Source of the DNA: Blastocatellia bacterium
GTDB taxonomy: Bacteria; Acidobacteriota; Blastocatellia; UBA7656
Assembly: GCA_963765495.1 (NCBI GenBank)
Contig: CAVXWP010000008.1
Location: 320,001 to 384,000, forward strand
Direction of reading: 5' to 3'
DNA: 64,000 bases
In this document: positions 21,578 through 37,540 of the stretch, in pieces
Layout: each line of letters starts with the position of its first letter
Position numbering within the stretch: position 1 is the first letter of the stretch
Notes under the pieces: generated by a model
Databases searched by the model: none
Told to the model about the DNA's origin: nothing
Seen by the model: only the letters and a program-made list of their open reading frames with translations
Program-made: the position numbers and the translations under genes

Positions 21578-21643
21578 CTCTTTGCCTCAATAAATTTACC
21601 TGGTCTCATCTCAATACAATAATAGTGAGGATGTCTCTTACTT

Positions 21644-21654
21644 GAGTCTGATAA
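21644..21654 (+). repeat. Copy of dif arm (GAGTCTGATAA)
   Basis: 10/11 match to the dif arm at 33415-33425; intergenic. Confidence 0.6.
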
Positions 21655-21776
21655 CATCCTGCAAGTCGATATATGAAGTTGTAAACGGAGGAATAAAAGA
21701 GACAGGTGGATAATGATATCGAGGGTTGGAGGCGGGCCCGACGGTTTTGGAAAAGTGACAGGGAGGTTTGGTTTAG

Positions 21777-22499
21777 ATGAGCAGGGTCGAAGGAAAGACA
21801 GCGATAGTGACAGGGGGGACTCGCGGAATCGGTTTCCAGATAGCACTCGAATTGTTGAAGCGAAAAGCGAATGTCTTAATCTGTGCTCGGAGCGCAGAGG
21901 AGGTTGAGCGGACCGTTTCAAGTTATGTCTCTGAATATGGGAACACGCTAAGGGGGATAGCCTGTGATGTCCGGGACCATCGTCAGGTTCAGGCATTGGT
22001 TGCAGAGTCTGAACATGCTTTTGGGGGTTTAGATATACTTGTAAACAATGCAGGTGTGGGATCGCACAACCAGGTAGAAGAGATGTCGCCCGATGAGTGG
22101 CGAGCGACAATCGAAACAAACCTCGGTGGAGTTTTTTACTCTTGCAAAGAGGCGATACCGCGGATGAAGAAGAGAGGCGGGGGCTACATAATCAATATTG
22201 GCAGTCTTGCCGGAAAGAATGCCTTTGCCGGGGGCTCGGCTTATTGCGCTTCCAAGTTTGGGCTTATTGGGTTCTCAGAGGCTCTGATGCAAGAGGTAAG
22301 GTATGACCACATCCGGGTCAGTTACGTCATGCCCGGGTCTGTGAATACAACCTTTGGCCGTAGTGGTCTACAGGATTCTTCCACTACATGGAAACTCCTG
22401 CCCGAAGATGTCGCCCTGGTAGTCATGAACCTGCTTGAGATGGACCCTCGCGCCATGCCGAGCCGGGTGGAACTGCGTCCATCAGAGCCTAAGAAATAG
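21777..22499 (+). CDS. SDR family oxidoreductase
   Basis: TGGTRGIG, NNAG, YCASK motifs. Confidence 0.92.
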   Translation: MSRVEGKTAIVTGGTRGIGFQIALELLKRKANVLICARSAEEVERTVSSYVSEYGNTLRGIACDVRDHRQVQALVAESEHAFGGLDILVNNAGVGSHNQVEEMSPDEWRATIETNLGGVFYSCKEAIPRMKKRGGGYIINIGSLAGKNAFAGGSAYCASKFGLIGFSEALMQEVRYDHIRVSYVMPGSVNTTFGRSGLQDSSTTWKLLPEDVALVVMNLLEMDPRAMPSRVELRPSEPKK

Positions 22500-22529
22500 C
22501 CTGTGTCTGGTGCGGCCTTACAGGGTCAA

Positions 22530-22558
22530 TTGACATGGGAAATGGCTGGCTGTAGAAT
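22530..22558 (+). promoter_or_regulatory. Sigma-70 promoter of ccsB-ccsA
   Basis: TTGACA-17 nt-TAGAAT, near consensus. Confidence 0.7.
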
Positions 22559-22585
22559 CGCTGTGTCAAGAATGTTCATCATAAA

Positions 22586-24184
22586 GTGGTGGTTTTATCA
22601 TCCTTCTCAACAGGTGCAATTATGGCAACGTCGGAAACAAATGTAAGAAATGATCCTGAATCAAATACGGCTGCTGAAGTAGTAGTCAAGCCAAGTCCCA
22701 GAAAAGAAGTATCCATAGTCGATAAAATATTAGCTCTGCTCAGTTCAGTGCGTTTTGGGGTGACTATGCTCGTCATCCTTTTGATTTGTTGTATGATCGG
22801 AATGCTTATTCAGCAGGTAAACGTAGAGGGATTTCAGGAGTACTTTCAGCGGCTTACACCCGCCCAAAGGTTGATCTACTCAAAGCTGGGATTCTTTGAT
22901 ATTTATCGGTCATGGTATTTTAGCCTTTTGCTTGCCGTAACAGGGTTGAATATTATCCTCGCATCTATAGATCGTTTTCCCACAGCCTGGCTCTATATCT
23001 CAAAGCCAAAGGTAAAGGCATCGCCAAATTTTATCCGCGCTCAGATGTTTAATAGCGAGATAAAAGAGAACATTCCTCCTCAGAAAGTGGCTGAAAGTGT
23101 CCGCGCCGGATGGCGCAGGCTCGGATTTCGAGGTAAGGCAACCGAGGATGGAAAAAGAATCACAGTATTTGCTCAGAAAAACACCTGGAATCGCCTCGGC
23201 GCATATGCAGTCCATGTTGCGCTGCTCACCATCTTCACGGGCGGCTTTTTGACAAACAGATATGGCGTAGGGGGGATGATGGAGATTCGCCCCGGGATGA
23301 CGACGAATGCCTTTAATACCATTGAAGAATCACTCGATGGGCCGAAAGTGGATAGAGCATTCACTCCGTTTCAAGTCGAGTGCGTAGATTTGCAGCAGAA
23401 ACTGATCAGACCCGAGGGCGGGCTCGATGCCCAAAACACGATTGATTGGATCAGCACCGTCAAGATAAAGGATGGCTCGAAAGAGGTCCCGGCAGTTGTG
23501 AAGTTGAATTATCCATTCGATTATCGCGGATACAGGCTTTTTCAATCACAGTTTACGCCGGTCGGGAATGCGCGGAAGATTGTTTTGAGTTTTGAACCCG
23601 CATCAGGCGGGAGCCCACTGCCCGAGGTTACGATCCCGCGAAACGGGTCGGAAGATGTTCCGGGCATTGGGAAAGTGAGTTATGTAGACTTCTTCCCGGA
23701 TTTCAAGATTACGGAATCGGGACCGACGACACAATCCGGGGAATACAACAGCCCTGCCGCGAGGTTGGAAATTACATCACTTGATGGTAAAAAACAGACG
23801 GCCTTTGCCTTCAGCCCAAAGATTGCGGACGAATATTTATCGGCGGCTGAAAAGGCCGACAAGACCGGGGGCGAGAACCCTCTGCTGGTAAATGGATACA
23901 AAGTTATATTAAAAGACTTTGAGAAGGTGGCGCTCGGCCATACGCTTGCAGTTCAGTATGACCCTGGCCGAATACCTGTCTATACGGGATTCACGCTTCT
24001 CATCCTTGCCTTATGTGGGGTTTTCTTTTTCTCTCATCAGAGAGCGTGGGCTGTTATTGAGCCCGATCCTGATGGGGGATCGACAGTGTACTTCGGGGGT
24101 AATACGAATCGAAACAGGCCTGCCTTCGAAGCTCGCTTCAATTCACTGGTTCAATCTGTTTCAGAAGGAAGGAGCCAAAGATGA
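22586..24184 (+). CDS. resB: Cytochrome c biogenesis protein ResB/CcsB (system II)
   Basis: LSSVRFG..LL...IGMLIQQ, DIYRSWYF, HVALL, LNYPFDYRGYRLFQS, YDPG motifs; start may be ATG 22622. Confidence 0.88.
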   Translation: MVVLSSFSTGAIMATSETNVRNDPESNTAAEVVVKPSPRKEVSIVDKILALLSSVRFGVTMLVILLICCMIGMLIQQVNVEGFQEYFQRLTPAQRLIYSKLGFFDIYRSWYFSLLLAVTGLNIILASIDRFPTAWLYISKPKVKASPNFIRAQMFNSEIKENIPPQKVAESVRAGWRRLGFRGKATEDGKRITVFAQKNTWNRLGAYAVHVALLTIFTGGFLTNRYGVGGMMEIRPGMTTNAFNTIEESLDGPKVDRAFTPFQVECVDLQQKLIRPEGGLDAQNTIDWISTVKIKDGSKEVPAVVKLNYPFDYRGYRLFQSQFTPVGNARKIVLSFEPASGGSPLPEVTIPRNGSEDVPGIGKVSYVDFFPDFKITESGPTTQSGEYNSPAARLEITSLDGKKQTAFAFSPKIADEYLSAAEKADKTGGENPLLVNGYKVILKDFEKVALGHTLAVQYDPGRIPVYTGFTLLILALCGVFFFSHQRAWAVIEPDPDGGSTVYFGGNTNRNRPAFEARFNSLVQSVSEGRSQR

Positions 24185-25737
24185 GTAGAGCAATAGACCG
24201 AAATGATGCAATGATGCCTGAACTGGAACTGACCTTGCCCGAGAAGGTGATTGGCATGTGGCCGGTTGTCATGCCTATATTGCTAGCGGTAGTGCTGATC
24301 CTGGCAAGGATTTACATAGGGCCAAAGGGCTTTTTATATGAGGGCGCGCTCACGATGCTTGCGCTCGTATCCTATATCAGCGCCGGAGTCCTGCTCTTAA
24401 CAAACCTCTTTGTAAAAGAGAATGTGCTTTACAGGCTGGGATTGCTGACCGTATCGATGGGGTATTGTTTTAACCTGTCCGGGTGGATGATGCGATGGAT
24501 AGAGGCCGGGGATGCCGAAGGGTGGAAAGAAGGAATCAACGGTGTCTGGCGCTATTTCCCGCTCGATAATCTTTATCCGCTAACGCTCGGATTTTGCGCG
24601 GGCGCAGCCTTGACGACGCTTGTGATTATTAGAAAACCTCGATATCAGTTTCTCGGGGCGCTCTCGATGCCGATAGTGACCGTGATTCTTACGCTTGCTA
24701 CTTTTTTGGGCAATGACATAAGAACGCTTCCTCCAATTCTAAACAGCTATTGGCGACCAATCCATGTGTCGATTGCGACAATCGCATATGGTGTTTGTCT
24801 GGTGAGTTTTGGTCTTGCCTTCGCTTATCTTCTAAAAGACGGGGTCAGAACAGAGGCGATTGCCATTGCGGTGGGGTTGTTTGGGCTGCTTGTGTATTCA
24901 ACGGTTGGGAGATTTGGCATCCCCTTTCATGGTGAGTATGGCGTTTCACTCTTTATGGATAAGATGAGTTTGCCTGTACGGGCAACTCTGCCTGGAGTCG
25001 GTCCCTTAATGGCCGTTGCTCTGATTCTGATATTGAGTGCTGTAATACTGTTTGCGATTGATTTCTGGAAGGGTGATGAGAAAGCGAAAAAATGGGGCTG
25101 GAATCTCTTCAGATCGGCAGTGGTCGTTCAGGCTATAGTGCTGGTCGCGCTGTTTTACCAGGTGAGCAATCTGAGCAATCCAAGTTCTCGTGTTCCGCAA
25201 AGCGCGTTGCCGCAATTCGGCGGATGGCTTTCAAAGCAGATGCAGACGAACGTGCCGCCTGATCGTCAGGCGGAATTGGCACAGAGTTGGATAAACCAGA
25301 ATTCAACATCTCTTATCGTCAACAAGGAGTCTAACCCCGTCGAATTTGGAGCACTCATCGGTTTATTTGTTGCGTTGCTGATTGTGTCATTGTTTGCCTG
25401 GAAGCGGAAAGAGGTGGTCAACTCCCTCCCTCCATTACAGAAGATTGACGGGTTGCTCTACAGAACTGTGGGGGTTGCTTTCCCCTTATTATCTCTTCTT
25501 TTGATTACGGGGGCCGTGTGGGCAAATGAGTCCTGGGGACGTTACTGGGGATGGGATTCAAAAGAGGTAGGGGCTCTCGTAGCATGGATGGCCTATGCAG
25601 GCTTCCTTCACACGAGGATTGCTCACGGCTGGCGAGGCAGACGCAGTGCCTACTTTGCCCTTCTCGGTTTTGCACTGGTGATCTTTACCTGGCTTGGGGT
25701 GAGCTACCTATTGCCGGGATTACATTCCTATGCCTAG
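24181..25737 (+). CDS. ccsA: Cytochrome c biogenesis protein CcsA/ResC (system II) with a large internal insertion
   Basis: WWD domain TGAVWANESWGRYWGWDSKE, YWRPIHV, C-terminal GLHSYA. Confidence 0.92.
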   Translation: MSRAIDRNDAMMPELELTLPEKVIGMWPVVMPILLAVVLILARIYIGPKGFLYEGALTMLALVSYISAGVLLLTNLFVKENVLYRLGLLTVSMGYCFNLSGWMMRWIEAGDAEGWKEGINGVWRYFPLDNLYPLTLGFCAGAALTTLVIIRKPRYQFLGALSMPIVTVILTLATFLGNDIRTLPPILNSYWRPIHVSIATIAYGVCLVSFGLAFAYLLKDGVRTEAIAIAVGLFGLLVYSTVGRFGIPFHGEYGVSLFMDKMSLPVRATLPGVGPLMAVALILILSAVILFAIDFWKGDEKAKKWGWNLFRSAVVVQAIVLVALFYQVSNLSNPSSRVPQSALPQFGGWLSKQMQTNVPPDRQAELAQSWINQNSTSLIVNKESNPVEFGALIGLFVALLIVSLFAWKRKEVVNSLPPLQKIDGLLYRTVGVAFPLLSLLLITGAVWANESWGRYWGWDSKEVGALVAWMAYAGFLHTRIAHGWRGRRSAYFALLGFALVIFTWLGVSYLLPGLHSYA

Positions 25738-25749
25738 AGTAAGCTGACG

Positions 25750-25776
25750 ACAAAGGCGGGTTATGCCCGCCTTTGT
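25750..25776 (+). terminator. Terminator after ccsA
   Basis: ACAAAGGCGGG-TTATG-CCCGCCTTTGT, perfect 11-bp stem. Confidence 0.75.
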
Positions 25777-25800
25777 AATTTCCTTGAGAGATTTAGATCA

Positions 25801-25811
25801 GAGTCTGATAA
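25801..25811 (+). repeat. Copy of dif arm (GAGTCTGATAA)
   Basis: Intergenic; followed by CG as in most other copies. Confidence 0.6.
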
Positions 25812-25863
25812 CGTAATTACTGGAAATAGTGTCTTAATTTCTTTGTATGAGGGAGGGGGGGCC

Positions 25864-26550
25864 ATGTCAGGTCAGGGAAGGATGATCAGTTTTAATGTAG
25901 GCGAGCGGACGGCTGAAGGGTATTTGATTGAACCAGGCGAAGGCAGGGGATTGCCGGGTTTAATCGTCATTCAGGAATGGTGGGGTCTTACTGATCATAT
26001 AAAAGATATAGCCGGGCGGTTTGCTGATGAAGGATATGTCGTTTTGGCACCCGATTTATATGATGGAAAGGTGACAAAAGATGCCGAAGAGGCCGGGCTA
26101 TTCATGCAACGGCTCAGCCCGGAGAAGGCCATTGAGACATTGAATGGTGCTGTTACATATCTAAAGAGTCAGGATAGTGTTGATCCGGCGAAGATAGGAG
26201 TTACAGGATTTTGTATGGGTGGGACATATGCCCTGCTTCTTGCCTGTAAGAACTCAGATATAAAGGCTACGGCTCCTTTTTATGGAGATGTGCCCTCGGA
26301 TGAAGTCCTTTCACAACTTTCCGCGCCGGTACTCTTTCAAGGAGCAGAAAATGATGCCTGGATTACACCTGAAAAGATGAGTAAATTAGAGCATGCCCTT
26401 AAAAAGTACGGGAAGGATGGAGATGTGAAAATCTATCCCGGTGTAGGGCACGCATTCTTTAATGACACGCGACCGGATGCTTACGATAAGGGGGCAGCAC
26501 AGGAAGCGTGGAAGAGTGTGTTGAGCTTTTTTGAAGAGAATCTGAAGTAG
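25864..26550 (+). CDS. Dienelactone hydrolase family protein
   Basis: IQEWWGL, GFCMGG nucleophile, GHAFFND; ATG 25864 likely (ORF from 25843). Confidence 0.92.
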   Translation: MSGQGRMISFNVGERTAEGYLIEPGEGRGLPGLIVIQEWWGLTDHIKDIAGRFADEGYVVLAPDLYDGKVTKDAEEAGLFMQRLSPEKAIETLNGAVTYLKSQDSVDPAKIGVTGFCMGGTYALLLACKNSDIKATAPFYGDVPSDEVLSQLSAPVLFQGAENDAWITPEKMSKLEHALKKYGKDGDVKIYPGVGHAFFNDTRPDAYDKGAAQEAWKSVLSFFEENLK

Positions 26551-26612
26551 GTCAAAATAACCGCTGATGCAGTTTGCCTTACATTTTTAACCAGTGTCAA
26601 TTCGGTAGCCTT

Positions 26613-27389
26613 TCAAAGTATCTGTACATCTGCTGAATTTAGAGCTGACCTCAGAACGATGTAAATATCTTTACCAACGCTGGAAAAGTCTGTAGGTGTG
26701 GTCCAGGCTGAGATGTCGAGAGTAGCAGCATCCCCCTCTATTGCAGCTACTCTTATTTCATGTGGTGGGGCTTTGAGAACCCTATCATCCTCAGAGAGGA
26801 CCTTGTCTATTGATTGAAGCGCGTCTTCAACCTTCTCTTGATTCACTTTAAGCTTGAGGTCGAGCCTGCGGCTTTGGCTGAGTGAGTAATTGATTATTTT
26901 TGCTCCCCACACTTTTGAATTTGGCATTATAACTCTAACGCCGTCACTTGTGATCATTTGCATATTGACGATTGTCAATTCATAGACAGTGCCTCGGCTT
27001 CCCTCTACTTCTATGGTCTGTCCGGCTCTGAAGGGCCGGTAAATGAGAAGGAGCAAGCCTGACGCAAAGTTCGATAGGGTATCCTTAAAGGCAAAGCCGA
27101 CAATGATTCCTGTAACGCCGAATCCTGCGATAAATGTTCTTACATCCCACCCTATCTTGCTTAATGCAGTAACAGTAGAGACTAATATAATTGATAGGGA
27201 AATAGCGCGAAGGAAGAAGTTTTTTAAGAGATTGTCATTTCCTATTCGGCCTCGGTCAAGGATAGGACGAAGCCATCGCTTTACCAGCCTTGCGGCAATT
27301 ATTCCGATTGCCATTATCAAAATCGCGTAGAATATATTGGGGGCGATTGAGATGAGACTGCTTCGCCAGTTCTCAAATGCTTGTTGCAT
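26613..27389 (-). CDS. mscS: Small-conductance mechanosensitive channel (MscS family)
   Basis: GFAFKDTLSNFASG..RPFRAG, IMPNS motifs; start MQQAF after GGAGG (ORF to 27437). Confidence 0.88.
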   Translation of the reverse strand: MQQAFENWRSSLISIAPNIFYAILIMAIGIIAARLVKRWLRPILDRGRIGNDNLLKNFFLRAISLSIILVSTVTALSKIGWDVRTFIAGFGVTGIIVGFAFKDTLSNFASGLLLLIYRPFRAGQTIEVEGSRGTVYELTIVNMQMITSDGVRVIMPNSKVWGAKIINYSLSQSRRLDLKLKVNQEKVEDALQSIDKVLSEDDRVLKAPPHEIRVAAIEGDAATLDISAWTTPTDFSSVGKDIYIVLRSALNSADVQIL

Positions 27390-27568
27390 GCTCTTTCCTC
27401 CAGCAAATAGGTCACATGTGGCCGATAAAAATTTCAACCTATCCAGGCGAAACGAAATACAATCAAGATATTATAATACTGTTGCGTCATTACAAAGGTA
27501 TTGAGCCACAAGGATTTAGTTGATACCATGAGATTACTTTAAACCAAAACAAGCGGGGGAAACAAAGA

Positions 27569-28855
27569 ATGGGAAGATTAGGTGTTTGTTGTCTGATAGT
27601 TCTCACAAGCACAAGCTTTATCAGTTCAAATGCTGGAAGAGTTGCAAAGTTTGATAGCTTATCGGCGGACCGGCTGCTCGAACACATAGGGGAAGCAAGG
27701 AAAAGGCTTGAAAGTGAGCAGGTTGAAATCTTATCCGATGTTGTTGGAAGCAGAAGAGTGCGGATAGGAAGGCGAAAATATAGAACAGAGCCTGTAATTG
27801 GGGTAGTAGGTCGTGAAATGGCTCTTGCCATTTTGGATGTCGATGGGAATATCCAGATTGCAAGAGGTATCAAGCGGGACAAAGGGCTTGATGTATTGAC
27901 TCCCGGGTTTATTTTGTCTGTCAGGCGCGATAATGGAATCAATTCCGACATTTCATGTGTAATGCCGTCTGGTGGTAAAGTTCTTGCGGTCAAATATCCG
28001 ATCGACAACAAGGGGAATCGCTTTGGAGCACGTGGGGAAGTTATACAGGCAATATATACTCCCTACTCGGCAGAGATAAAATCTGAGGATCTGATTGAGC
28101 GCGGGATCAAAGTACAAAATGACTTTATTGAGAAGGCATATATAGCTCTGGAAAAGCGCGGAGTGATGTCGCTTGCATACACCGGGAAGAAGGTAATTGA
28201 TGTGGTGCGGCGTGACGTTCTGACCGTCTTATTGATGAATGAGCACATCGATCCTTCACTCTTTAAGTCATCCGGTTTAACGAGACCTCTTGTTGAGCAA
28301 GTTCTGACGACAATCGCTACTAATAGGGAAAGAGCATATGCTTACTCCATTAGTTCTGCTGGCGCTCGGGGATTGATTCAAATGATACCCTCTACCTATT
28401 ACCTGATTGCACGGAAATATCCACTGGCAAGACTCAATCCCAACTTTATTGATGGAATGATAGATCCGGTGAATGCAGTAATGGCTCAGGTACTGCTTTG
28501 TGATTCGGACTGGCAGGCGATAAGATCGAGAGAGGATGTAGGACCGGAGAGGATCGGTCCTTATCTGGCTGCTGCCTATAATGGTGGAGTGGGGCGTGTT
28601 CTGTCGGTTTTTGCACACGATGAGACCGATTGGATGGAGAGTCCCGAGCCTGGTCGCAAGCCTACAATGACTGTGACGAAGAGAGTTCCGGTCAGAGTAA
28701 GGACACGACGGGGGAGAAAGACGAAATACGTTTTGAAGAGCTATACGCAACCAATCTTTCGTTCGGAGACCAGCAAGTATGTGAGACAGTACCACTGGAT
28801 AAACGACTATTTTGTGGGACGGAATACAGAAGGATTTAAAGAGCTGGAAGAGTAA
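27569..28855 (+). CDS. Secreted lytic transglycosylase/lysozyme-like protein
   Basis: SSAGARGLIQMIPST, LAAAYNGG and ETSKYV are SLT-type motifs. Confidence 0.7.
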   Translation: MGRLGVCCLIVLTSTSFISSNAGRVAKFDSLSADRLLEHIGEARKRLESEQVEILSDVVGSRRVRIGRRKYRTEPVIGVVGREMALAILDVDGNIQIARGIKRDKGLDVLTPGFILSVRRDNGINSDISCVMPSGGKVLAVKYPIDNKGNRFGARGEVIQAIYTPYSAEIKSEDLIERGIKVQNDFIEKAYIALEKRGVMSLAYTGKKVIDVVRRDVLTVLLMNEHIDPSLFKSSGLTRPLVEQVLTTIATNRERAYAYSISSAGARGLIQMIPSTYYLIARKYPLARLNPNFIDGMIDPVNAVMAQVLLCDSDWQAIRSREDVGPERIGPYLAAAYNGGVGRVLSVFAHDETDWMESPEPGRKPTMTVTKRVPVRVRTRRGRKTKYVLKSYTQPIFRSETSKYVRQYHWINDYFVGRNTEGFKELEE

Positions 28856-28941
28856 ATCTGGTTGCTAAATCGAGTTGCCTGAGCCTAAAACGCCTATCAT
28901 TGTTAGTTATTTTGAGATTCGTTTCTGAGGCTTCTCGGGAT

Positions 28942-29023
28942 AAAAATAAAGAAGGGTCAAAGTGATCAGCACAGCCCCCGTTGCCCTGATCATTTTGACC
29001 CTTCCGTTCTTTTTGAAGCTCGC
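28942..29023 (-). ncRNA. Putative sigma-54-dependent small RNA (~80 nt)
   Basis: Begins about 12 nt downstream of a -24/-12 box; 19-bp stem (arms 28951-28969 and 28986-29004, one non-canonical pair) with loop GGCAACGGGGGCUGUG, then UUUAUUUUU. Confidence 0.6.
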
Positions 29024-29033
29024 CATAATGGAC

Positions 29034-29049
29034 TGCAATCTGGATGCCA
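29034..29049 (-). promoter_or_regulatory. Sigma-54 (-24/-12) promoter
   Basis: TGGCATCCAGATTGCA; GG-N10-GC spacing is exact. Confidence 0.7.
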
Positions 29050-29087
29050 TGTTATTGTGAAAGAAACGTGTGTTGTAAGTCGTGTTA

Positions 29088-29100
29088 AATCAATAGGTTA
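29088..29100 (+). promoter_or_regulatory. IHF binding site
   Basis: AATCAATAGGTTA matches WATCAANNNNTTR; lies between the sigma-54 box and the candidate activator sites. Confidence 0.65.
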
Positions 29101-29132
29101 TTGAGGGCTTTGGAAGGGGTAGGATTTCGAAG

Positions 29133-29334: not shown

Positions 29335-30330
29335 ATGCGAATATTGATAACAGGTGGCGCGGGATTTCTTGGCTCACATCTTGTTGACAGGTTGATGGAT
29401 AATGATCATGAAGTAATCGTTTTTGATAATCTCGTGACTGGGCGTGCAGCAAATATTGAGCATCATTTGGGAAAAGCCCACTTCCGCTTTGTTAAGCAAG
29501 ATGTCACAGAATACTTGTATGTAAAAGGCTCATTAGATGCTGTGGTCCATTTTGCTTCTCCAGCCAGTCCCATAGACTATTTACAATTGCCGATACAGAC
29601 TTTGAAAGTAGGCAGTTTGGGAACGCATAAGGCACTTGGTTTGGCGAAGGAGAAAAATGCTCGTTTTCTTCTTGCCTCGACTTCTGAAGTTTACGGCGAT
29701 CCTGATGTGCACCCTCAGAAGGAAACTTATTGGGGAAATGTCAACCCGGTTGGTCCCCGGGGCGTTTATGATGAAGCCAAGAGATTTGCAGAGGCAATGG
29801 TTATGGCCTATCATCGAGTTCATGGGTTGGATACGCGTATAGTGAGGATATTCAACACTTATGGGAGTAGGATGCGGCCAAATGATGGAAGAGTGGTGTC
29901 GAATTTTATTGTGCAGGCCATAAATGGTGAGCCTCTTACCATTTATGGTAGTGGGAAGCAGACCCGGTCATTTTGTTATGTCAGTGATTTGATCGATGGA
30001 ATAATAAAGTTATTGATGTATTCTGAAGAAGGGAAATATCAAGAGGATGTAGGGAATATTCACCTGCCTGTGAATATAGGCAATCCTCAGGAGTTCAGTG
30101 TGCTTGAATTAGCAGAGAAGGTTATAGCCCTTTCGGGGACAGGGAGTAGAATTGAATTCCATCCGCTTCCAATCGATGACCCGCAGGTCAGGCAGCCAAA
30201 TATTGAAAGGGCTCAAAATCTTTTGGAATGGGAACCTACTGTCTCTCTTGACCAGGGGCTTGAGAAAACTTTTTCTTATTTCAGGAGTTTAAGAGCTTTT
30301 CAACTCGAGTCTGATAACGATACGGAATAA
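29335..30330 (+). CDS. UDP-glucuronate decarboxylase (UDP-xylose synthase) family
   Basis: [43 protein letters not shown] motifs. Confidence 0.92.
30307..30317 (+). repeat. Copy of dif arm (GAGTCTGATAA)
   Basis: Within the last codons of the decarboxylase gene. Confidence 0.55.
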
Positions 30331-30332
30331 TT

Positions 30333-31391
30333 ATGAGAATTAAAGTCTACCCAAACATAAGTAAGTGGAAGAAGTGTCTGTTTTTCATTTTGCTAAGTCT
30401 TATAATTTTGTATCCTCGAGTTGAGTCGTTTGGTCAGGAAGTGGACCAGAGACGTGGAAGAGATAAATCGGGGCGAGATGAGAAGGCAATTAAACTGAAT
30501 GCAACGCTCGTGCAGGTTCCTGTCATAGTCAGTGATTTGGGGGGTAGGTACACTACGGATTTGAAGAAGGAGGACTTTGAATTATTTGAGGATGGTGTTG
30601 AGCAAGATATTGAATTGTTTGGGTCGGTGGAAGAGCCTTTTAGTGTTGCTTTGTTGTTGGATAGTAGTGGGTCTACGGCTGAACAGTTGGCATTGATTAA
30701 AAAGGCGGCATTGGTCTTTATTGGGAATTTGAGGGCTCAGGATAAGGTTATGGTGTTTTCTTTTAATGATAGTGTTCAACAGATGTGTCCTCTTACTGGT
30801 GATAGGAATATTTTAAGGAATGCGATCGAGACAATAGAAAGCGGAGAATATACACAAGTTTATGAGGCAGTTTATACTGCGGTTTGGGAAAGGTTGAGGG
30901 GAGTTAGTGGTAGGAAGGCTGTCATAATGTTTTCCGATGGGATTGATACAGCGAGCAGTGAAATTGATGCTGAAGATACACTGGATGCGGTAGTAGAGAC
31001 AGAGGATATTATTATTTATCCAATTAGGTATAACACAAAGGCGGATGTAATTGAGAAGCTCGTTCGTAGGAGGGAAGGAGATTTGAAAGTTAGTCATTCC
31101 GCTGAAGCAAGTAAGTCTTGGGAAGAGACAATTAAGAGTTTAGATGACACTTATCGAGTGGCAGATGATTATCTGTCGCAGCTTGCTGAGTTGTCGGGGG
31201 GAGTTTTGGAGCGTGCGGACAGATTAGAAGATTTGGAGCAGGCATTTACAAGAATTGCTGAAGAGCTACGTCATCAGTATTTACTAGGGTACTATCCTAA
31301 GGATAGTGAAAGCAGGGGAATGGATCGAAGGATCAAGGTTAGAGTAAGACGTCCGAATTTAAGGGTAAGAGCCAGACCAGGGTATAAATAG
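30333..31391 (+). CDS. VWA domain protein (acidobacterial VWFA-related type)
   Basis: LVQVPVIVSD..GRY..DL..EDF..FEDG, MIDAS DSSGS, ELRHQYLLGYYP, VRARPGY motifs. Confidence 0.9.
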   Translation: MRIKVYPNISKWKKCLFFILLSLIILYPRVESFGQEVDQRRGRDKSGRDEKAIKLNATLVQVPVIVSDLGGRYTTDLKKEDFELFEDGVEQDIELFGSVEEPFSVALLLDSSGSTAEQLALIKKAALVFIGNLRAQDKVMVFSFNDSVQQMCPLTGDRNILRNAIETIESGEYTQVYEAVYTAVWERLRGVSGRKAVIMFSDGIDTASSEIDAEDTLDAVVETEDIIIYPIRYNTKADVIEKLVRRREGDLKVSHSAEASKSWEETIKSLDDTYRVADDYLSQLAELSGGVLERADRLEDLEQAFTRIAEELRHQYLLGYYPKDSESRGMDRRIKVRVRRPNLRVRARPGYK

Positions 31392-31402
31392 AATAAATAC
31401 GC

Positions 31403-31413
31403 GCGTCTGATAA
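31403..31413 (+). repeat. Copy of dif arm (GCGTCTGATAA, then CGAAC)
   Basis: 11/11 match to the dif arm plus a partial match to the dif core TGAAC; intergenic; inverted relative to the arm in dif. Confidence 0.65.
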
Positions 31414-31434
31414 CGAACCCCCCTTGTTTTAATA

Positions 31435-32169
31435 GTGAAATGGAGTGGATTAGTGAAGAGGGATATATTGGATTTTCTTGAGAGGGTGTATGAGAAAGGT
31501 GGGTCGTTGGCTATTTTAACTTTTCTTAATAAGGAGAATTCTGTTCGTAAGGGAGTAAGTGTGTTAGATGGTCGTCTTGAGGGGGGGTATGGTGATATTG
31601 ATGTATATGAATTTGACTCTGGATGGTTGGGTGGGGACGATATTGGTGGGAGTGATGTGGTGGGTTTGGCTCAAGAGCAAGAAGTGATTATTGAGGTAAT
31701 GAGGCCGGAGCGTAGACTAATAGTATTTGGTGCAGGACATGTGGGGAAAGCTGTTGCAGAGCTTGGTCTTTTTGCTGGCTTTAAAGTGTTGGTAGTTGAT
31801 GATCGTGGGGACTTTCTGGAAATAGTTCGTAATGTCGATTCTGAGATTAGTGTATTGTGTGTTGACTATAATGAAAGTATTCAGGACATTGGAATTGATG
31901 AGTCTTGTAGTGTTGTTATTGTAACTAGAGGGCATCAATTTGATGAAATCTGTTTGAGTGAGGTCTTGAATTCTACTGCATCATATATAGGAATGATTGG
32001 TAGTAGGAGGCGTGTAAAGGCTGTTTTTCAGAGGCTTACTGATAGGGGGTGTTCAGAAAGGGAATTGGTTAGAGTTCATGCTCCTATTGGTCTCGATATT
32101 GGTGCTAGCTCTCCAGAGGAGATAGCTGTGGCAATTTTGGCTGAAGTCATACAGACTCTTAATAGATAG
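31435..32169 (+). CDS. XdhC family protein (C-terminal Rossmann domain, short N-terminus)
   Basis: LIVFGAGHVG, VTRGH, YIGMIGSRRR, HAPIGLDIGASSPEEIAVAI motifs. Confidence 0.88.
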   Translation: MKWSGLVKRDILDFLERVYEKGGSLAILTFLNKENSVRKGVSVLDGRLEGGYGDIDVYEFDSGWLGGDDIGGSDVVGLAQEQEVIIEVMRPERRLIVFGAGHVGKAVAELGLFAGFKVLVVDDRGDFLEIVRNVDSEISVLCVDYNESIQDIGIDESCSVVIVTRGHQFDEICLSEVLNSTASYIGMIGSRRRVKAVFQRLTDRGCSERELVRVHAPIGLDIGASSPEEIAVAILAEVIQTLNR

Positions 32170-32192
32170 GGTCAAAAGTTAGGAAGGATCTG

Positions 32193-33371
32193 ATGGGTTC
32201 AATGTTTTTAGGGGGACTTGATATCCTCGATTTGGATGGTGAATTAACTGATGAGGAAAGGTTGGTTAGGGAGACCGTCAGGCAATTTGTAACGGCTGAG
32301 GTTCATCCTGTTATTGCTGAGTGCTATGAGGAAGGCTATTTTCCTATGGATATGGTGGGAAAGCTTGCGGATCTTGGAGTCTTTGGAGCGAATTTACCAG
32401 AGGAATATGGTTGTGCAGGTATGAATAATGTTTCGTATGGTTTGGTAATGCAGGAGCTAGAGGCTGGAGACTCGGGGCTTAGGAGTTTTGCTTCGGTTCA
32501 AGGTGCGTTATGTATGTATCCTATTTATGAATTTGGGAGTGAGGATCAAAAGCAAGGATATTTGCCAAAGATGGCAAAAGGTGAAGTGATTGGTTGTTTT
32601 GGTTTGACGGAGCCTAATCATGGATCAGATCCTGGCGGCATGTTGACCAGGGCTAAAAAGGTTAATGATGGTTGGGTACTTAATGGTTCTAAGGCATGGA
32701 TAACTAATGGGAGTATTGCAGATATTGCAGTTGTTTGGGCGAAGACTGAAGATGGAATTATAAAGGGATTTTTAGTAGAAAAAGGAAGGAAAGGGTTTAA
32801 GGCTCGTGAAACAAAGCATAAGATGAGTCTAAGAGCATCTATTACTTCGGAATTATCTTTTGAAGATTGTTGGATTCCTGAAGAGAATATACTTCCGGGA
32901 AGTAATGGACTTAAAAGTCCCCTGATGTGTCTGACTCAGGCTCGATATGGCATAGCATGGGGAGTAATTGGTGCGGCTTTGTCTTGTTTGACTACTGCGA
33001 TTGAGTATTCGAAAGAGAGAGTGCAGTTTGGTAAGCCAATCGGAAGCTTTCAGCTGACCCAGAAAAAATTGGTGGAAATGATGACTGAGATTGTAAAGGC
33101 ACAGTTGTTGAGTCTTCGGCTGGGTAGATTGAAGGATGTTGGTAAGTTGAAACCTATCCAGGTTTCATTGGCAAAGATGAATAATGTTGCTATGGCTCTT
33201 GAATGTGCGCGGATTGCGAGAGGTATACTGGGAGCGAATGGGATTATAGGCGAGTATCCTATAATGCGGCACATGTGTAATCTGGAGTCTGTCTATACTT
33301 ATGAGGGAACAAATGAAGTTCATTTGTTAGCCCTGGGTAAGTACCTTACAGGTCTTGATGCGTTTGGATGA
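32193..33371 (+). CDS. Acyl-CoA dehydrogenase (glutaryl-CoA dehydrogenase-like)
   Basis: DSGLRSFASVQ, GCFGLTEPNHGSDPG, WITNG, LESVYTYEGT motifs. Confidence 0.9.
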   Translation: MGSMFLGGLDILDLDGELTDEERLVRETVRQFVTAEVHPVIAECYEEGYFPMDMVGKLADLGVFGANLPEEYGCAGMNNVSYGLVMQELEAGDSGLRSFASVQGALCMYPIYEFGSEDQKQGYLPKMAKGEVIGCFGLTEPNHGSDPGGMLTRAKKVNDGWVLNGSKAWITNGSIADIAVVWAKTEDGIIKGFLVEKGRKGFKARETKHKMSLRASITSELSFEDCWIPEENILPGSNGLKSPLMCLTQARYGIAWGVIGAALSCLTTAIEYSKERVQFGKPIGSFQLTQKKLVEMMTEIVKAQLLSLRLGRLKDVGKLKPIQVSLAKMNNVAMALECARIARGILGANGIIGEYPIMRHMCNLESVYTYEGTNEVHLLALGKYLTGLDAFG

Positions 33372-33397
33372 CTCTACTATGTGTAATTGCTTATTGA

Positions 33398-33425
33398 TAT
33401 ATACATAACGTTCATTATCAGACGC
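33398..33425 (-). other. dif-like chromosome dimer resolution site (XerC/XerD)
   Basis: GCGTCTGATAA-TGAACG-TTATGTATATA has the 11-6-11 layout with ATAA/TTAT inner ends and a TTATGT XerD-type arm (E. coli: GGTGCGCATAA-TGTATA-TTATGTTAAAT); intergenic, at the G/C skew flip. Confidence 0.85.
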
Positions 33426-33446
33426 AAGCTGTGTTCTCTGTATATG

Positions 33447-34151
33447 TCATGACATGAAGTGCAACCAGTCGGATAATCGAGCTATTCTCATGCAATGGTT
33501 ATCTCGCTTCTCCTCCCCCATTGTACTTACAGCCTTAGGGCCATAGTCGTGACCCGGATATAGTCTTATGTTATCTGGCAATTTCGCCAGCACCTGCGTC
33601 AGGGTCTCATACATCTTTACCGCGTCACCACCTGGGAGATCAACCCTTCCACATCCTCCTACAAATAATGTATCCCCAGAAATCAGACCGGAGTCTATCA
33701 AAAAACACTGACTGCCCGGTGTATGTCCGGGTGTATGAAGCAGAGTTATCTTTATCTCCCCTATTTCAATAATCGCTCCCCCTTTATGCCTGATAATATC
33801 TGTGGAACTCAGACCAGCCACCTTAATTACTCCCTCCGCCTCATGAATGTTTACATGGATTGGAACCTGAATGACCGATAGCAGATCTGCCAATCCGGCA
33901 ATCTCTCGCCCAAAAATTTCACCCCCAATATGATCAGGGTGATAATGTGTTACCAGGACCCCAACTATCATAAGGTCCTGTTCTTCTATATATCGTAATA
34001 TTCCCGGGATATCCCAGGCCGGATCTACTAATACACATTCTCTCTTCTTGTCATCCCCGATTATATAAACAAAATTGGCCATCTGTGTTGCGAAATGATC
34101 ATCCATCCCAAAATCCCGCCCACTCTTAAGTTGTTTCAAATATAATCCCAT
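33447..34151 (-). CDS. Metallo-beta-lactamase-fold hydrolase (glyoxalase II-like)
   Basis: THYHPDH, TPGHTPG, SGDTLF, PGHDY motifs. Confidence 0.92.
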   Translation of the reverse strand: MGLYLKQLKSGRDFGMDDHFATQMANFVYIIGDDKKRECVLVDPAWDIPGILRYIEEQDLMIVGVLVTHYHPDHIGGEIFGREIAGLADLLSVIQVPIHVNIHEAEGVIKVAGLSSTDIIRHKGGAIIEIGEIKITLLHTPGHTPGSQCFLIDSGLISGDTLFVGGCGRVDLPGGDAVKMYETLTQVLAKLPDNIRLYPGHDYGPKAVSTMGEEKRDNHCMRIARLSDWLHFMS

Positions 34152-34236
34152 ATATCTTTATCCTCCTGAAATACTTTTATTTACCTGGGTTTACCCTGAC
34201 TTGAAAAAAATCTTATTCTGCGCTAGAAATCAATTT

Positions 34237-34611
34237 ATGATTAACTTTCAACGACCTTCGATTCGACTCAAGGTTTCAGCGCTTTTGCTCCTTTCATTAT
34301 GTATTCTTGGTTTGAATGTCTCATGTAAAACAAATAACGCAAAGGCTTCTGAGGCTATCGAGAACTATATGAGAAACCATGGAGCATCAAAGATCCAGTC
34401 TGATTTCCTTTACACAACCAATGATTTCCCAGGTAAGGCATATGCCGGCGTAACTGTTACTTATAATTTTGCTGATTCGAAAGGCTCGCCCCAGCAAGAA
34501 TTTTTGGGATTTATTCTCTCCACTAATACGAGCGAATGGAAAGTAGAAAGCTCAACTGGCTATACTACAGATGAAAAGAGAGCCCACGCGATTTTAGCTG
34601 GGAAGAAATAG
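34237..34611 (+). CDS. Hypothetical lipoprotein
   Basis: Hydrophobic signal ending LNVSC; ATG 34237 likely (ORF from 34201). Confidence 0.6.
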   Translation: MINFQRPSIRLKVSALLLLSLCILGLNVSCKTNNAKASEAIENYMRNHGASKIQSDFLYTTNDFPGKAYAGVTVTYNFADSKGSPQQEFLGFILSTNTSEWKVESSTGYTTDEKRAHAILAGKK

Positions 34612-34626
34612 ACCGGCTCTCTTCCC

Positions 34627-34974
34627 CTAACTCTTTTTAAATCTGGATGTAGTTTTGCCAAATTGCTCTTTGTACCACGTAAGTTCGTCTTGAAATCCTG
34701 CCTGTCCTTGCTTAAAACGTCTGACTCCCGTACCAGCACCATAATATCCTGCATGAGGAAGTGGCCCGTATAATTCCTCTTCGGTGTCTGAAGACTCTGC
34801 AATATCCTTTTTGTATGCTCTTTCGTACCCACCGCCAATACCAAACCCTTGTGTGCGCATCTCCAAGCGCCTTGATGGATGCTCCATTTTTAAATAGCCG
34901 ATCCCTGAATTGCGAGTTCGGGGTTCAGAGCTTATCTCAGCAGGTATTTCATTATCTCTATCTTTCTTATCCAT
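34627..34974 (-). CDS. Hypothetical hydrophilic protein
   Basis: 115-aa ORF filling the gap downstream of the response regulator, with a purine-rich upstream region. Confidence 0.55.
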   Translation of the reverse strand: MDKKDRDNEIPAEISSEPRTRNSGIGYLKMEHPSRRLEMRTQGFGIGGGYERAYKKDIAESSDTEEELYGPLPHAGYYGAGTGVRRFKQGQAGFQDELTWYKEQFGKTTSRFKKS

Positions 34975-35024
34975 ACTCTGATCCTATCCTCTTCTATTTT
35001 ATTTATAACTAAAATTTCTATCAT

Positions 35025-36452
35025 TTAGGTTGTAGACGCTCTGGAACTATAGCTCATATATTCATCATCATCCCCATTATCGCCAGTATTTTGCCCTGCT
35101 GTTCCATACCCATACTGGCGCAAGCGCCTATAGAGGGTTCGCCTGTCAATCCCGAGAATCTGGGCGGTCTTTATTTGATGCCCGTCCATTTTTTCCAGAA
35201 CCCTTACAATATATCGACGCTCGACCTCAGCAAGGGACGCATTATCCAGGATCGCTTCCTCAAGTATATCCCTCTCTGGCGAAGTTATACTTACTGGCAA
35301 ATCGTCTGATGTAAGTAGCTCATCACTGCCCATCGTCAAGGCATGCTCCACCGCATTCTCTAGCTCCCTAACATTTCCAGGCCAGGTATGAGTCATCAGG
35401 ACACGCATCGCCTCACTGGAGAAGCGTCTTGGAGGCTCGTTATGTTGCTTTGCAAACTTTTGCAAAAAATGATGAACCAGCAACGGTATATCTTCACGTC
35501 TGTCCTTAAGGTCGGGAAGCCTTACAGGTACAACATTCAGCCGATAAAAGAGATCCTGACGAAATTCTCCACGCTTTACAGCTTCCTCTAAATCCATGTT
35601 GCTTGCCGACACAAGACGAATATCTATCTGGAGGTTCTCTCTTCCCCCAACCCTTCTGACAACACGTTCTTGTAATACTCTTAAGAGCTTAACCTGCAGG
35701 CTTTGGGAAAGTGTGTTTATCTCATCAAGAAATACAGTTCCTCCCTGGGCCTCCTCAATCAGACCACGCCTGGTTTCGTGCGCTCCTGTAAAGGCTCCTT
35801 TCTGATGCCCAAAAAGTTCAGATTCCAGCAGGGTCTCTGGAATTGCAGAACAATTTATGGGTACAAAAGGGGCATCCCTTCGATCTGAATTATAATGAAT
35901 CGCCCTGGCTACAAGTTCCTTCCCTGTTCCAGTGGAGCCAATGATCAATGCCGATGCGTCACGTCTGGCTGCTATTCGTTTTATAACCTCGAAGAGGTGC
36001 TGCATGGGCTTGCTACGCCCAACTATGTTCGAAAAATTATATCGATCCCTAACTTCTGCCCTTAACTCTTTGACTTCTCTACGCAGACTCCGCCGCTCAA
36101 GCGCCTTCTCTACAGTTATTGCAAGCTCATCCAATTGGAAGGGCTTCCCTATATAGTCCTCAGCCCCTAATTTCATAGCCTCAACGGCAGATGATATAGA
36201 ACTAAAGGCAGTCATAATAATGACAAGAACATCAGGCCAGTCCAATCTAATGCGCGCAAGGAGTTCCAAGCCACTTATCCCTGGAAGTTTTATATCTGTA
36301 ACGACCAGTGCATAGTCCTGTTCTTCGAGGCGAAGAATTGCCTCTTCTCCATTTTGAACCGCATTGACTTTAAATCCTCTTTCCGAGAAAAATAGTACAA
36401 GAAGCTCACGCATCGGAGCTTCATCCTCGATAATCAATATTCTTTGATTCAT
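35025..36452 (-). CDS. NtrC-family sigma-54 response regulator
   Basis: Receiver domain (IEDE, TDIKLP, KPF), GSTGTGKE, GAFTGA, WPGNVREL, Fis-type HTH. Confidence 0.95.
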   Translation of the reverse strand: MNQRILIIEDEAPMRELLVLFFSERGFKVNAVQNGEEAILRLEEQDYALVVTDIKLPGISGLELLARIRLDWPDVLVIIMTAFSSISSAVEAMKLGAEDYIGKPFQLDELAITVEKALERRSLRREVKELRAEVRDRYNFSNIVGRSKPMQHLFEVIKRIAARRDASALIIGSTGTGKELVARAIHYNSDRRDAPFVPINCSAIPETLLESELFGHQKGAFTGAHETRRGLIEEAQGGTVFLDEINTLSQSLQVKLLRVLQERVVRRVGGRENLQIDIRLVSASNMDLEEAVKRGEFRQDLFYRLNVVPVRLPDLKDRREDIPLLVHHFLQKFAKQHNEPPRRFSSEAMRVLMTHTWPGNVRELENAVEHALTMGSDELLTSDDLPVSITSPERDILEEAILDNASLAEVERRYIVRVLEKMDGHQIKTAQILGIDRRTLYRRLRQYGYGTAGQNTGDNGDDDEYMSYSSRASTT

Positions 36453-36469
36453 TGATCCCCTCTGAAATA

Positions 36470-37540
36470 TTAGCTGTTGTTCTGCTTAGGAAATTTCAAA
36501 TGGAGCGCAGTTCCCTCTCCATCCAATTCTCTTTGCCCCACTTTGACATTATATTCTGCCAGGCTGTTACACGCGACTGCCAATAGCCGAGAACTTTCTA
36601 TCTCCCCCCCAGTCTTATCCCTTAAATCAAATTCTATATCAATATAGCTTTCGTTATCAGACGCAGGTTTAACGCTGACTACAACACTACTTTCAGGGCA
36701 AAGGGTCTCGCAGATACTTATCAGGATTTTGAAAAACGCTTGCCTCAGCCCAAAGACATCCCCCTTAATCAATGGAAGTTGAGTATTACAGTTGAGACTC
36801 GTGTTTATTGATTTCTTTCGAAGATAATGCCCTGCCAGGTCGAGAGATTCACGGAGCACCGTCTCTATACTTATTGCTATGGACTGCCTGCTTTGGGGAT
36901 TCGTTACATTCAGCAATTGCTTTATAAATTCCGAGACTCGTCTTGTCTGCTGGAGAATTGTCGAAAGTTCTTTATATCCTTTACCTTCTGAATCCGTTCG
37001 CATCAACAGATATTCAGCATATCCGGAGATGATATTAAGAGGAGTTCCCACATCATGCACAAGGCTTGCAATCATCTGTCCCAAGATCACAATCTGGTCC
37101 TCTTTTTGGTCTAAAGTCGAATTCACATTTTGCTCCGTTACATCAGACACTATCCTTATATAACCTCGATTCGTACCGTCTATAGCAGTCAGGGGCTTCA
37201 TCAAAACTCGTAGCCGCTTTCCGCGAACTTGAATAATAAAATCCCTGATTTCATCATCTGATAAAAACGCCGTATCATTTCGAGAGGTCACATCTGCTAC
37301 AGGTAATACATCATCGTAATTTAACCCGAGAAGATCCTCTGCAGCAACTCCATAAAATTCGGCGACTTTCTCATTTGCAAATATAACCTTCCCCTCCTGC
37401 GAGTGGATTGTCACCCCTTCATCTATTAAATCCAAAACCACTTTCCAAGCTTCAATTAAGTAATCGTAGGGGTTATCGCCTGATATTAAAGGCAGGTCTT
37501 TGCTAATGGCATTACGATCAGGTTTACTCATCTCACCCAT
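36470..37540 (-). CDS. PAS-HisKA sensor with a degenerate ATPase domain
   Basis: PAS domain; H-box SLVHDVGTPLN; C-terminal region is short with no clear N or G boxes. Confidence 0.8.
   Translation of the reverse strand: MGEMSKPDRNAISKDLPLISGDNPYDYLIEAWKVVLDLIDEGVTIHSQEGKVIFANEKVAEFYGVAAEDLLGLNYDDVLPVADVTSRNDTAFLSDDEIRDFIIQVRGKRLRVLMKPLTAIDGTNRGYIRIVSDVTEQNVNSTLDQKEDQIVILGQMIASLVHDVGTPLNIISGYAEYLLMRTDSEGKGYKELSTILQQTRRVSEFIKQLLNVTNPQSRQSIAISIETVLRESLDLAGHYLRKKSINTSLNCNTQLPLIKGDVFGLRQAFFKILISICETLCPESSVVVSVKPASDNESYIDIEFDLRDKTGGEIESSRLLAVACNSLAEYNVKVGQRELDGEGTALHLKFPKQNNS
36654..36664 (-). repeat. Copy of dif arm (GCGTCTGATAA)
   Basis: 11/11 match on the minus strand, inside the degenerate kinase tail. 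Confidence 0.55.

Follow-up and report, generated by a model that had tools for sequence, protein, structure and literature searches.

Convergent series of single dif-arm copies around dif in Blastocatellia: putative protein-binding sites of the chromosome terminus

Introduction

XerD of Staphylococcus aureus binds extra dif-arm-like sites near the terminus and unloads SMC there. In Bacillus subtilis, passages of three citing papers describe XerD as unloading Smc-ScpAB at dif-like terminus sites called XDS (PMC11840125, PMC10945525, PMC11894783), which agrees with the background given in a first-pass annotation of the DNA studied here. According to the same passages, an artificial XDS array stops SMC translocation (PMC11840125), and several sites are possibly needed per trapping event (PMC10945525). 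The DNA in question is a stretch of 64,000 nucleotides from a Blastocatellia bacterium of the phylum Acidobacteriota (C8:320001-384000 of genome G000, assembly GCA_963765495.1), and "the window" below means that whole stretch. It holds a dif site and, on either side of it, isolated copies of one dif arm, most of them followed by two further conserved bases. As judged from sequence, these dif-derived single-arm copies are class-wide putative protein-binding sites with the consensus G-M-G-T-C-T-G-A-T-A-A-C-G, in two opposed series that converge on dif.

The array is like XDS in that it consists of extra single dif-like sites that are multiple, clustered at the terminus and without a partner arm, in a genome with XerC, XerD, Smc and ScpA. 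The differences, which are also what is new relative to XDS, are that the array copies the arm opposite the TTATG (XerD-type) arm and not the XerD half, an arm assignment made by homology; that its 13-bp motif has a C-G extension absent from dif; and that it is strictly inward-polar and convergent, belongs to another phylum, and has some copies embedded in coding sequence. The opposed series of asymmetric sites, with back-ups and few wrongly oriented copies, also recall Tus-Ter and RTP-Ter, but the sites here are a dif arm, no Tus or RTP homologue was found in G000, and the distances to dif are far shorter, from 64 bp to 46 kb with a median of 6.4 kb. FtsK-orienting polar sequences (KOPS), SpoIIIE recognition sequences (SRS) and "architecture-imparting" octamers share with it the leading-strand 5'-3' reading toward dif, the flip at dif and a density that rises toward dif; however, the array motif has 12-13 bp, is AT-rich and very rare, and is not a short frequent octamer. 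MatP-matS, which organizes the E. coli Ter macrodomain and excludes MukBEF, is terminus-restricted with a density that rises toward dif, as described in part of PMC10945525. While matS is palindromic and unoriented, the motif here is asymmetric, and MatP was not found in G000. CTCF sites at the cohesin loop boundaries of eukaryotes follow a rule of convergent orientation; if the array acts on SMC as proposed below, it would share with them a convergent rule for a directional SMC barrier, a pure analogy between unrelated proteins.

No description of such an array was found in the literature on dif and XerC half-sites, on XDS and SMC, on the distribution of fork traps, or on Xer in Blastocatellia, and a 2011 survey of dif that included three Acidobacteria reports, in the part available, single sites only (PMC3025954). 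Terminus marking and protection are largely unknown outside Firmicutes and Enterobacteria. To our knowledge, no SMC-exclusion system has been described besides XerD/XDS and MatP/matS, and fork traps are described only in the Tus and RTP lineages; were the array shown to trap forks or to act on SMC as a directional barrier, it would be categorically new. Sequence-defined, selectable and strictly oriented sites of 13 bp that can be moved and inverted, in a poorly studied phylum, provide a directly testable handle on the direction-sensitivity of terminus barriers, on a recombinase monomer as a polar roadblock in vivo, and on which arm and recombinase are recruited. They also provide a clean case of a chromosome-level DNA signal within protein-coding sequence, carried by codon choice and in-frame insertions.

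The half-site array of the source genome

Genome G000 comprises 7.30 Mb in 17 contigs, and contig C8 makes up 13% of it. The dif site of the window (Table 1) has the anatomy of 28 bp in which an 11-bp arm ending in ATAA, a 6-bp centre and an 11-bp arm starting with TTATG follow one another, and within the 120 kb of C8 scanned around it, it is the sole copy of the first arm followed by 6 nt and TTATG. Replichore polarity converges at this site, and both XerC and XerD are encoded in the genome. The repeated arm is the one opposite TTATG, which we take to be XerC-type from that position and from the dif sites of E. coli and B. subtilis.

Exact copies of GMGTCTGATAA number six in the window, at 21644, 25801, 30307 and 31403 on the forward strand and at 33415 (the dif arm) and 36654 on the reverse strand, against 0.07 expected; none of 100 dinucleotide-preserving shuffles reaches six. 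The first-pass annotation had reported five isolated half-sites, all directed toward dif and continuing with C (four with CG), and the exact scan finds the same: the next base is C in 5 of 5 isolated copies of the window, followed by G in 4 of 5. Open reading frame (ORF) placement likewise agrees with its description of three intergenic copies (in the Maf-SDR, CcsA-dienelactone hydrolase (DLH) and VWA-XdhC spacers) and two in C-terminal coding sequence. The copy at 30307 is within the last eight codons of its gene (..LESDNDTE*), 15 nt ahead of the next ATG, and the copy at 36654 is in the C-terminal third of a histidine kinase (..PASDNES..). A one-mismatch scan of the window adds only 41436 on the forward strand. 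This copy (GCGTGTGATAACG, 41436-41448) is directed away from dif, lies inside a short inverted repeat (GTGTGA....TCACAC), and is probably a chance match or a decayed site.

Over the whole genome the 11-mer has eight copies, every one on C8 at 341,644-392,571: four forward copies left of dif, the arm of dif itself, and three reverse copies on the right. Two of the reverse copies lie outside the window (C8:390365 and C8:392571, 6.4 and 8.6 kb past its right end), and therefore the array spans 51 kb and not the 15 kb first described, although its confinement to one zone of the terminus holds for 8 of 8 genome copies. The following base is C in 7 of 7 isolated copies of G000 and CG follows in 6 of 7. 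The 12-mer GMGTCTGATAAC has seven exact copies in G000, all within the array zone and all seven dif-directed; its 26 one-mismatch variants, one being dif itself, are scattered over the genome. All 10 copies of the 10-mer GTCTGATAAC are on C8 and all 10 are dif-directed, with four forward copies on the left and six reverse copies on the right of dif, reaching 329 kb. Since 12.6-14.3 copies are expected genome-wide from Markov models, and 8.7 is the mean of 100 same-composition permutations, the 10-mer is not over-abundant, but it is confined and oriented. Sites are dense within ~50 kb of dif and sparse or absent elsewhere. The genome-wide scan against distance and orientation to dif, which had been proposed with the original description, thus gives a spread that is neither even nor unoriented, and polarity toward dif is strict in G000 (seven 12-mers, 10 10-mers).

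Table 1. Features of the window (positions of the 64,000-nucleotide stretch)
Feature	Positions	Strand	Sequence	Context
dif	33398..33425	-	GCGTCTGATAA (33425-33415), tgaacg (33414-33409), TTATGTATATA (33408-33398)	
Isolated half-site	21644..21655	+	GAGTCTGATAAC(a)	Maf-SDR spacer, dif-directed; G015 has a site in the same spacer
Isolated half-site	25801..25813	+	GAGTCTGATAACG	CcsA-DLH spacer, dif-directed
Half-site	30307..30319	+	GAGTCTGATAACG	Within final codons (E-S-D-N) of UDP-glucuronate decarboxylase-like gene
Isolated half-site	31403..31415	+	GCGTCTGATAACG	VWA-XdhC spacer; syntenic in 10 genomes
Half-site	36652..36664	-	GCGTCTGATAACG	Within histidine-kinase gene (A-S-D-N), dif-directed
Weak relaxed copy	18777..18787	+	CGGTCTGATAA(t)	dif-directed, antisense to 322-aa ORF; may be a chance match
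Last forward octamer before dif	30028..30035	+	GAAGGGAA	Polarity-switch context
First reverse octamer after dif	41268..41275	-	GAAGGGAA	Polarity-switch context

Motif anatomy and selection at the DNA level

The isolated copies form a 13-bp motif, GMGTCTGATAACG, without a second arm. Position counts over 86 half-sites are G(71) M G T C T(78) G A T A A C(69) G(62); T predominates at position -1 and no second arm appears downstream, which bears out the original view of the repeated unit as the non-TTATG arm of dif in the form of isolated half-sites. Position 12 is T in 20 of 24 full dif-like sites, whereas it is C in 69 of 86 half-sites, and in G007, G002 and G009, where the dif arm has C at position 6, the strict half-sites retain T. 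Given the C12-G13 extension and this constancy where the dif arm varies, the half-site is a 13-bp element in its own right rather than a degenerate dif.

Selection maintains the motif as a DNA sequence. When the syntenic VWA-XdhC spacer is aligned across 10 genomes, GTCTGATAA alone is invariant and the next C is conserved in at least 90%, with the flanks randomised. In coding sequence, genus g28 (G099, G134, G146) has 3-4 motif copies in the fused LptF/LptG permease gene beside dif (PF03739). A conserved RLIT is written CGT CTG ATA ACx in all three g28 genomes; the RLIT of G167 is CGG CTC ATC ACG. A second, S/G-LIT position holds the motif in two of the three, and the other g28 copies are in an inserted SDN tripeptide (G099, G146) or in a ~95-aa insert with three ASDN (G134). 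The lptFG homologues elsewhere, including the G000 copy on contig C7, have neither the insert nor the motif. The two coding copies of the window likewise encode (E/A)-S-D-N, in a C-terminal tail or C-terminal region.

Orientation relative to genes was tabulated for 74 sites with crude ORF calling (longest ORF of at least 100 aa), so that some antisense ORFs are spurious, for example 341574-342119. By this count 36 sites are in an ORF in sense, 14 are in an ORF in antisense, and 24 are without an ORF of at least 100 aa. Among the antisense sites in ORFs of at least 300 aa, seven are still directed toward dif and one is directed away, and two intergenic sites have neighbours on the opposite strand only. 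Antisense sites keep the inward direction, and therefore polarity tracks dif and not transcription.

Arrays in related Blastocatellia

In 31 genomes drawn from the same family, order and class, copies of the 11-mer are grouped on single contigs, and wherever a contig has both orientations every forward copy is ahead of every reverse copy (18 of 18), an arrangement that is convergent whichever way the contig is written. Examples are G015:C2, a 7.9-Mb contig (+ + - -), G006:C28 (+ + + - -), G010:C11 (+ + - -), and G026:C1 (+ + + -). The 10-mer has four copies in the 8.6 Mb of G015, all four within 40.5 kb of dif (+ + + | -; seven copies of the reversed control word), and six of six copies in G006 are within 15 kb (+ + + | - - -; six for the control word). 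In G134, four of 10 copies are within 1.4 kb adjoining dif and another four, all forward, are on a different 2-Mb contig; five of seven copies in G146 are on the dif contig, all forward; three of four in G167 are on its dif contig; and four of seven in G099 share one contig.

Relaxed sites were defined as NNGTCYGATAA without 6 nt and TTAYR after it. Where dif could be identified (22 contigs or loci), the direction is toward dif for 79 of 83 relaxed sites and for 48 of 49 strict 12-mers, at a median distance of 6.4 kb (range 64 bp to 45.7 kb); three more sites are on G099:C10, where the sequence covered has no dif. The array around dif predicted for relatives was thus found within the class. 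Several sites are syntenic within the family of the window: those ahead of XdhC and of DLH, those between Maf and SDR, and those that follow CcsA. Sites past CcsA and/or ahead of DLH are also present in G015, G006 and G007, and the copy at 30307 has counterparts downstream of the same decarboxylase-like gene in G015 and G006. The array is mirror-symmetric about the position of dif and does not follow the asymmetry of dif itself, since both orientations of dif relative to the array are found. A further set of 40 acidobacterial loci anchored on acyl-CoA dehydrogenase (L065-L104) mostly has no dif adjoining this gene. New data come only from L066, L069, L077, L080 and L089, L067 and L075, with a pattern identical to that of contigs in the table of sites, being omitted to avoid double counting; L077, L080 and L089 read + + dif - (-), and L069 has dif and one reverse site.

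Some arrangements in the class are unusual. In genus g20, G020 (C4, C15) and G023 (C1, C25) each have two separate convergent clusters on different contigs, which may reflect a mixture of strains, a split in the assembly, or an additional replicon that has a terminus of its own; a second canonical dif was not found in the extra g20 clusters. G026:C1 has a pair of full dif-like sites in direct orientation, at 308986 and 324168 and thus separated by 15 kb, which may be an element of the type of the Xer-dependent mobile elements (IMEX) integrated at dif. Arm pairs that face one another at short range are present at G024:C172:6651-6682, G024:C269:5680/5719, G030:C26:9823/9927 and G017:C1003:7494/7617, and in one such pair two arms separated by a 10-bp spacer make up a near-palindrome, without a canonical TTATG arm between.

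Other classes and phyla

In a sample of 151 genomes of the phylum, multi-copy clusters of the exact 12-mer are present only in the class of the window, and the other classes have 0-2 copies, like the control word. The tallies of the 12-mer, the generic dif pattern and FtsK-gamma include the unpublished G076, and the generic-dif tally also G170 and G052, but none of the individual claims depends on these genomes; the generic pattern, ATAANNNNNNTTATGT, is unspecific phylum-wide (10 fixed bases) and is usable only for high-GC genomes with a single match. Approximately 760 kb from other phyla (L105-L144) contain six core matches only. The surroundings of dif were examined in five genomes of other classes, over ±40 kb in G063, G096 and G131 and partially in G119 and G039. 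The dif of G096, G131, G119 and G039 is GRGTCYGATAA, 6 nt, TTATGTTAA(C/G)T, and that of G063 is ACTTTCGATAA, 6 nt, TTATGTAACCT. No extra copies of the inner 8-mer or 9-mer of either arm were found around dif in these five genomes. Among the genomes sampled the array is thus limited to the class, while the arm is common to most sampled classes, and it is a class-level innovation built on a common dif arm. With a dif arm that hardly varies within the phylum, covariation between arm and half-site carries no information.

The TTATG arm of this class is without its conserved outer half (TTATGTATATA, TTACGATACTC, TTATGCATTCT and others), which is kept as TTATGTTAACT or TTATGTTAAGT in four of the five genomes of other classes. 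The conserved arm here is GMGTCYGATAA; usually it is the other arm that is conserved, so the pattern is reversed.

A KOPS-like octamer and the location of the terminus

An unbiased search for words skewed around dif gave GAAGGGAA, with 59 leading and 8 lagging copies on C8. Its cumulative skew has a maximum at C8:350,028, and the 17 copies that come next, starting at 361,268, lie on the reverse strand without exception. Having been picked by its skew around dif, the octamer is circular evidence for C8, but it is strongly skewed on further contigs too (C7 28:6, C4 2:15, C9 8:28). It is a candidate KOPS/SRS octamer of the lineage, and its polarity flip at dif supports dif as the point where replichore polarity converges. 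Local GC skew reverses sign near window position 34000 and is weak across the rest of C8, and for this reason the terminus call rests on dif and the polarity of GAAGGGAA. Between 26000 and 44000 of the window, GC content is 0.42-0.46, compared with 0.52-0.55 in the flanks, and local GC skew is very strong, up to 0.42. Translocase guidance, one of the roles first suggested for the half-sites, is unlikely in the KOPS sense because this separate, G-rich octamer fits it.

Interpretation of the array

Only a process that travels from the origin to the terminus along both chromosome arms explains the mirror polarity about dif. Smc-ScpAB translocation, FtsK translocation and replication forks are candidates; transcription is excluded as the cause because antisense sites stay dif-directed. 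The outer end of the sites (5'-GMG) is always origin-proximal and the inner end (ATAA-CG) always dif-proximal, so bound monomers would turn their blocking face to machines that come from the origin. As reported in part of PMC2800217, a lone XerD on a dif half-site stops FtsK ~5-fold more effectively when met at its outer face than at its inner one, and a Cre monomer on half of loxP is a ~3-fold better stop from the outer face. These outer-face roadblock data and the XDS precedent favour a reading in terms of Smc-ScpAB. Each site would bind one Xer recombinase monomer, of the kind that occupies the non-TTATG arm of dif, and C12-G13 would stabilise lone binding and/or render the site inert for strand exchange with dif, the central region of which mostly begins with T. 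The outer face of every bound monomer would then be toward the origin on both arms, and the array could serve as a direction-dependent roadblock or unloading zone for machines tracking from origin to terminus, the likeliest target being Smc-ScpAB, which would be kept from the dif zone as by XerD at XDS in B. subtilis. We tentatively prefer this prediction, with somewhat less than even confidence: Xer-monomer sites that are origin-facing roadblocks or unloaders for Smc-ScpAB, XDS-like but built on the opposite dif arm. A related possibility is a bacterial CTCF-like, orientation-dependent barrier to SMC loop extrusion.

Several points weigh against the prediction. Known XDS resemble the XerD arm, whereas the arm repeated here is opposite TTATG, and the C12-G13 that is conserved in the half-sites but missing from dif could just as well point to another reader protein. 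Polarity is not known as a property of SMC-unloading sites, and no canonical parS was found in G000 at up to one mismatch, with three scattered matches at two mismatches. E. coli XerC alone gives no block, which the available part of PMC2800217 attributes to weak arm binding. Four relaxed sites are directed away from dif (G000 378846+, G007:C3 16766-, G020:C4 81115+ and L089 11242+), as is a 10-mer copy at G134:C1:396840, 45 kb away on the other side of dif. The 22 contigs or loci were selected for holding motif copies, and the site counts are not independent because the genomes are related to one another and several of their sites are syntenic at the family level. The array is also not universal, since L066 has a dif with no core site within ~10 kb either side and L065 has no core site in the 21 kb covered.

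Xer monomers might instead slow or stop FtsK near dif, or concentrate recombinase there. As an aid to dimer resolution they would thereby mark out a "dif activity zone" and favour synapsis or decatenation. The outer face, from which a lone XerD or Cre monomer preferentially stops FtsK (part of PMC2800217), is here the face met by incoming KOPS-guided FtsK; the FtsK of G000 has a gamma domain, and the half-sites have the polarity of the KOPS-like octamer. However, halting FtsK ahead of dif seems counter-productive, a recombinase reservoir would need no orientation, and the motif is far too rare for guidance (10 copies of the 10-mer in 7.3 Mb), for which GAAGGGAA already fits, so that this role is unlikely. 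A third, independently evolved bacterial fork trap, with a recombinase or other monomeric reader on polar dif-arm copies, would let forks enter the dif zone and arrest them on exit, and C12-G13, at the dif-proximal end, would be unwound first by an exiting fork. The anatomy is that of a Ter array, with asymmetric sites in two opposed clusters and multiple back-ups, and the role is vacant without a Tus or RTP homologue in G000. The near-absence of copies elsewhere or in the wrong orientation fits sites that are harmful if misplaced, but the depletion elsewhere is only suggestive (30 of 100 permutations have three copies or fewer), and we know of no tyrosine recombinase that arrests forks. While known traps arose twice by convergence, most bacteria appear to be without them, as stated in part of PMC10331603, and in the only direction-dependent data (for FtsK, in part of PMC2800217) it is the outer face that blocks, the wrong face for a trap; we consider a fork trap quite unlikely.

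The reader of GTCTGATAACG might instead be some other monomeric DNA-binding protein, with identity to the dif arm due to arm duplication or shared occupancy, in a different terminus organisation such as Topo IV targeting or divisome anchoring. The motif runs 2 bp past the arm and differs from dif there, it is constant where the dif arm varies, and the TTATG arm without its conserved outer half hints at a changed Xer/dif system; but no candidate reader was found in G000, where MatP is absent, and identity to the dif arm at 11 of 11 positions is most simply the mark of the same reader, so we regard another protein as improbable. Non-functional relics of IMEX at dif, spread by inversions, are very improbable. 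Integration at dif does leave one-arm hybrid sites in direct repeat, dif-symmetric inversions have occurred between G000 and G015 or G006 and preserve inward polarity, and G026 has its pair of full dif-like sites 15 kb apart. Yet the genes between the sites are housekeeping genes, the motif is exactly conserved in otherwise randomised spacers and is written into coding sequence through codon choice and in-frame insertions, C12-G13 is unlike dif central regions, and the sites are mirror-oriented on both sides of dif without a second arm, not one-sided direct repeats. Least probable of all is a sense-strand signal (promoter, operator or RNA element) with a polarity that mirrors transcription toward dif. 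All window copies are on the sense strand of the flanking genes, several just upstream of a start codon, but 14 of the 74 tabulated sites are antisense in an ORF, the seven in ORFs of at least 300 aa keep to dif, the two intergenic sites noted above have opposite-strand neighbours only, many sites are gene-internal, and the motif, which matches the dif arm exactly, is restricted to the zone of dif.

Genes around dif and candidate proteins

The genes near dif are ordinary housekeeping genes transcribed toward dif, with MscS on the opposite strand. On the left are Maf, SDR, ResB/CcsA, dienelactone hydrolase, MscS, an SLT-domain protein, the UDP-glucuronate-decarboxylase-like gene, VWA, XdhC and acyl-CoA dehydrogenase, and on the right an MBL hydrolase, a sigma-54 response regulator and the histidine kinase; no mobile-looking genes are among the annotated neighbours in the region. 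XerD is encoded on C8, 120 kb from dif (TIGR02225, 364 bits), and XerC on C16 (TIGR02224, 349 bits); Smc, ScpA and an FtsK with a gamma domain are also encoded in G000. The Tus and RTP families PF05472 and PF02334 have no match in G000, with positive controls in E. coli and B. subtilis.

G000 also encodes a stand-alone 165-aa protein (G000:C9:162861-163355, reverse strand; locus L064:2358-2855) whose C-terminus is an FtsK-gamma domain (PF09397, 42 bits). Searched with this query, only G009 has a homologue, ~40 kb from dif on the dif contig, apart from a 211-aa frame in G157. The protein could be a Xer-activating or DNA-reading factor. It was considered as the half-site reader and rejected, since with this query it was not found in the array-rich genus g28.

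Gene blocks are on swapped sides of dif when window positions 20987-37540 are compared with L003-L006 of G006 and G015. In G000 the Maf-SDR-ResB-CcsA block is on the left of dif and the histidine kinase, response regulator and MBL block on the right; in G015 and G006 the two have exchanged places, which is consistent with dif-symmetric inversions that keep the inward polarity of genes and sites. A fused lptF/lptG gene is near or adjoins dif in several classes (G039, G119, G096, G131, G134, G146, G167 and G026; loci L063, L061, L054, L058, L024, L027, L029 and L015), while that of G000 has moved from dif and sits on contig C7.

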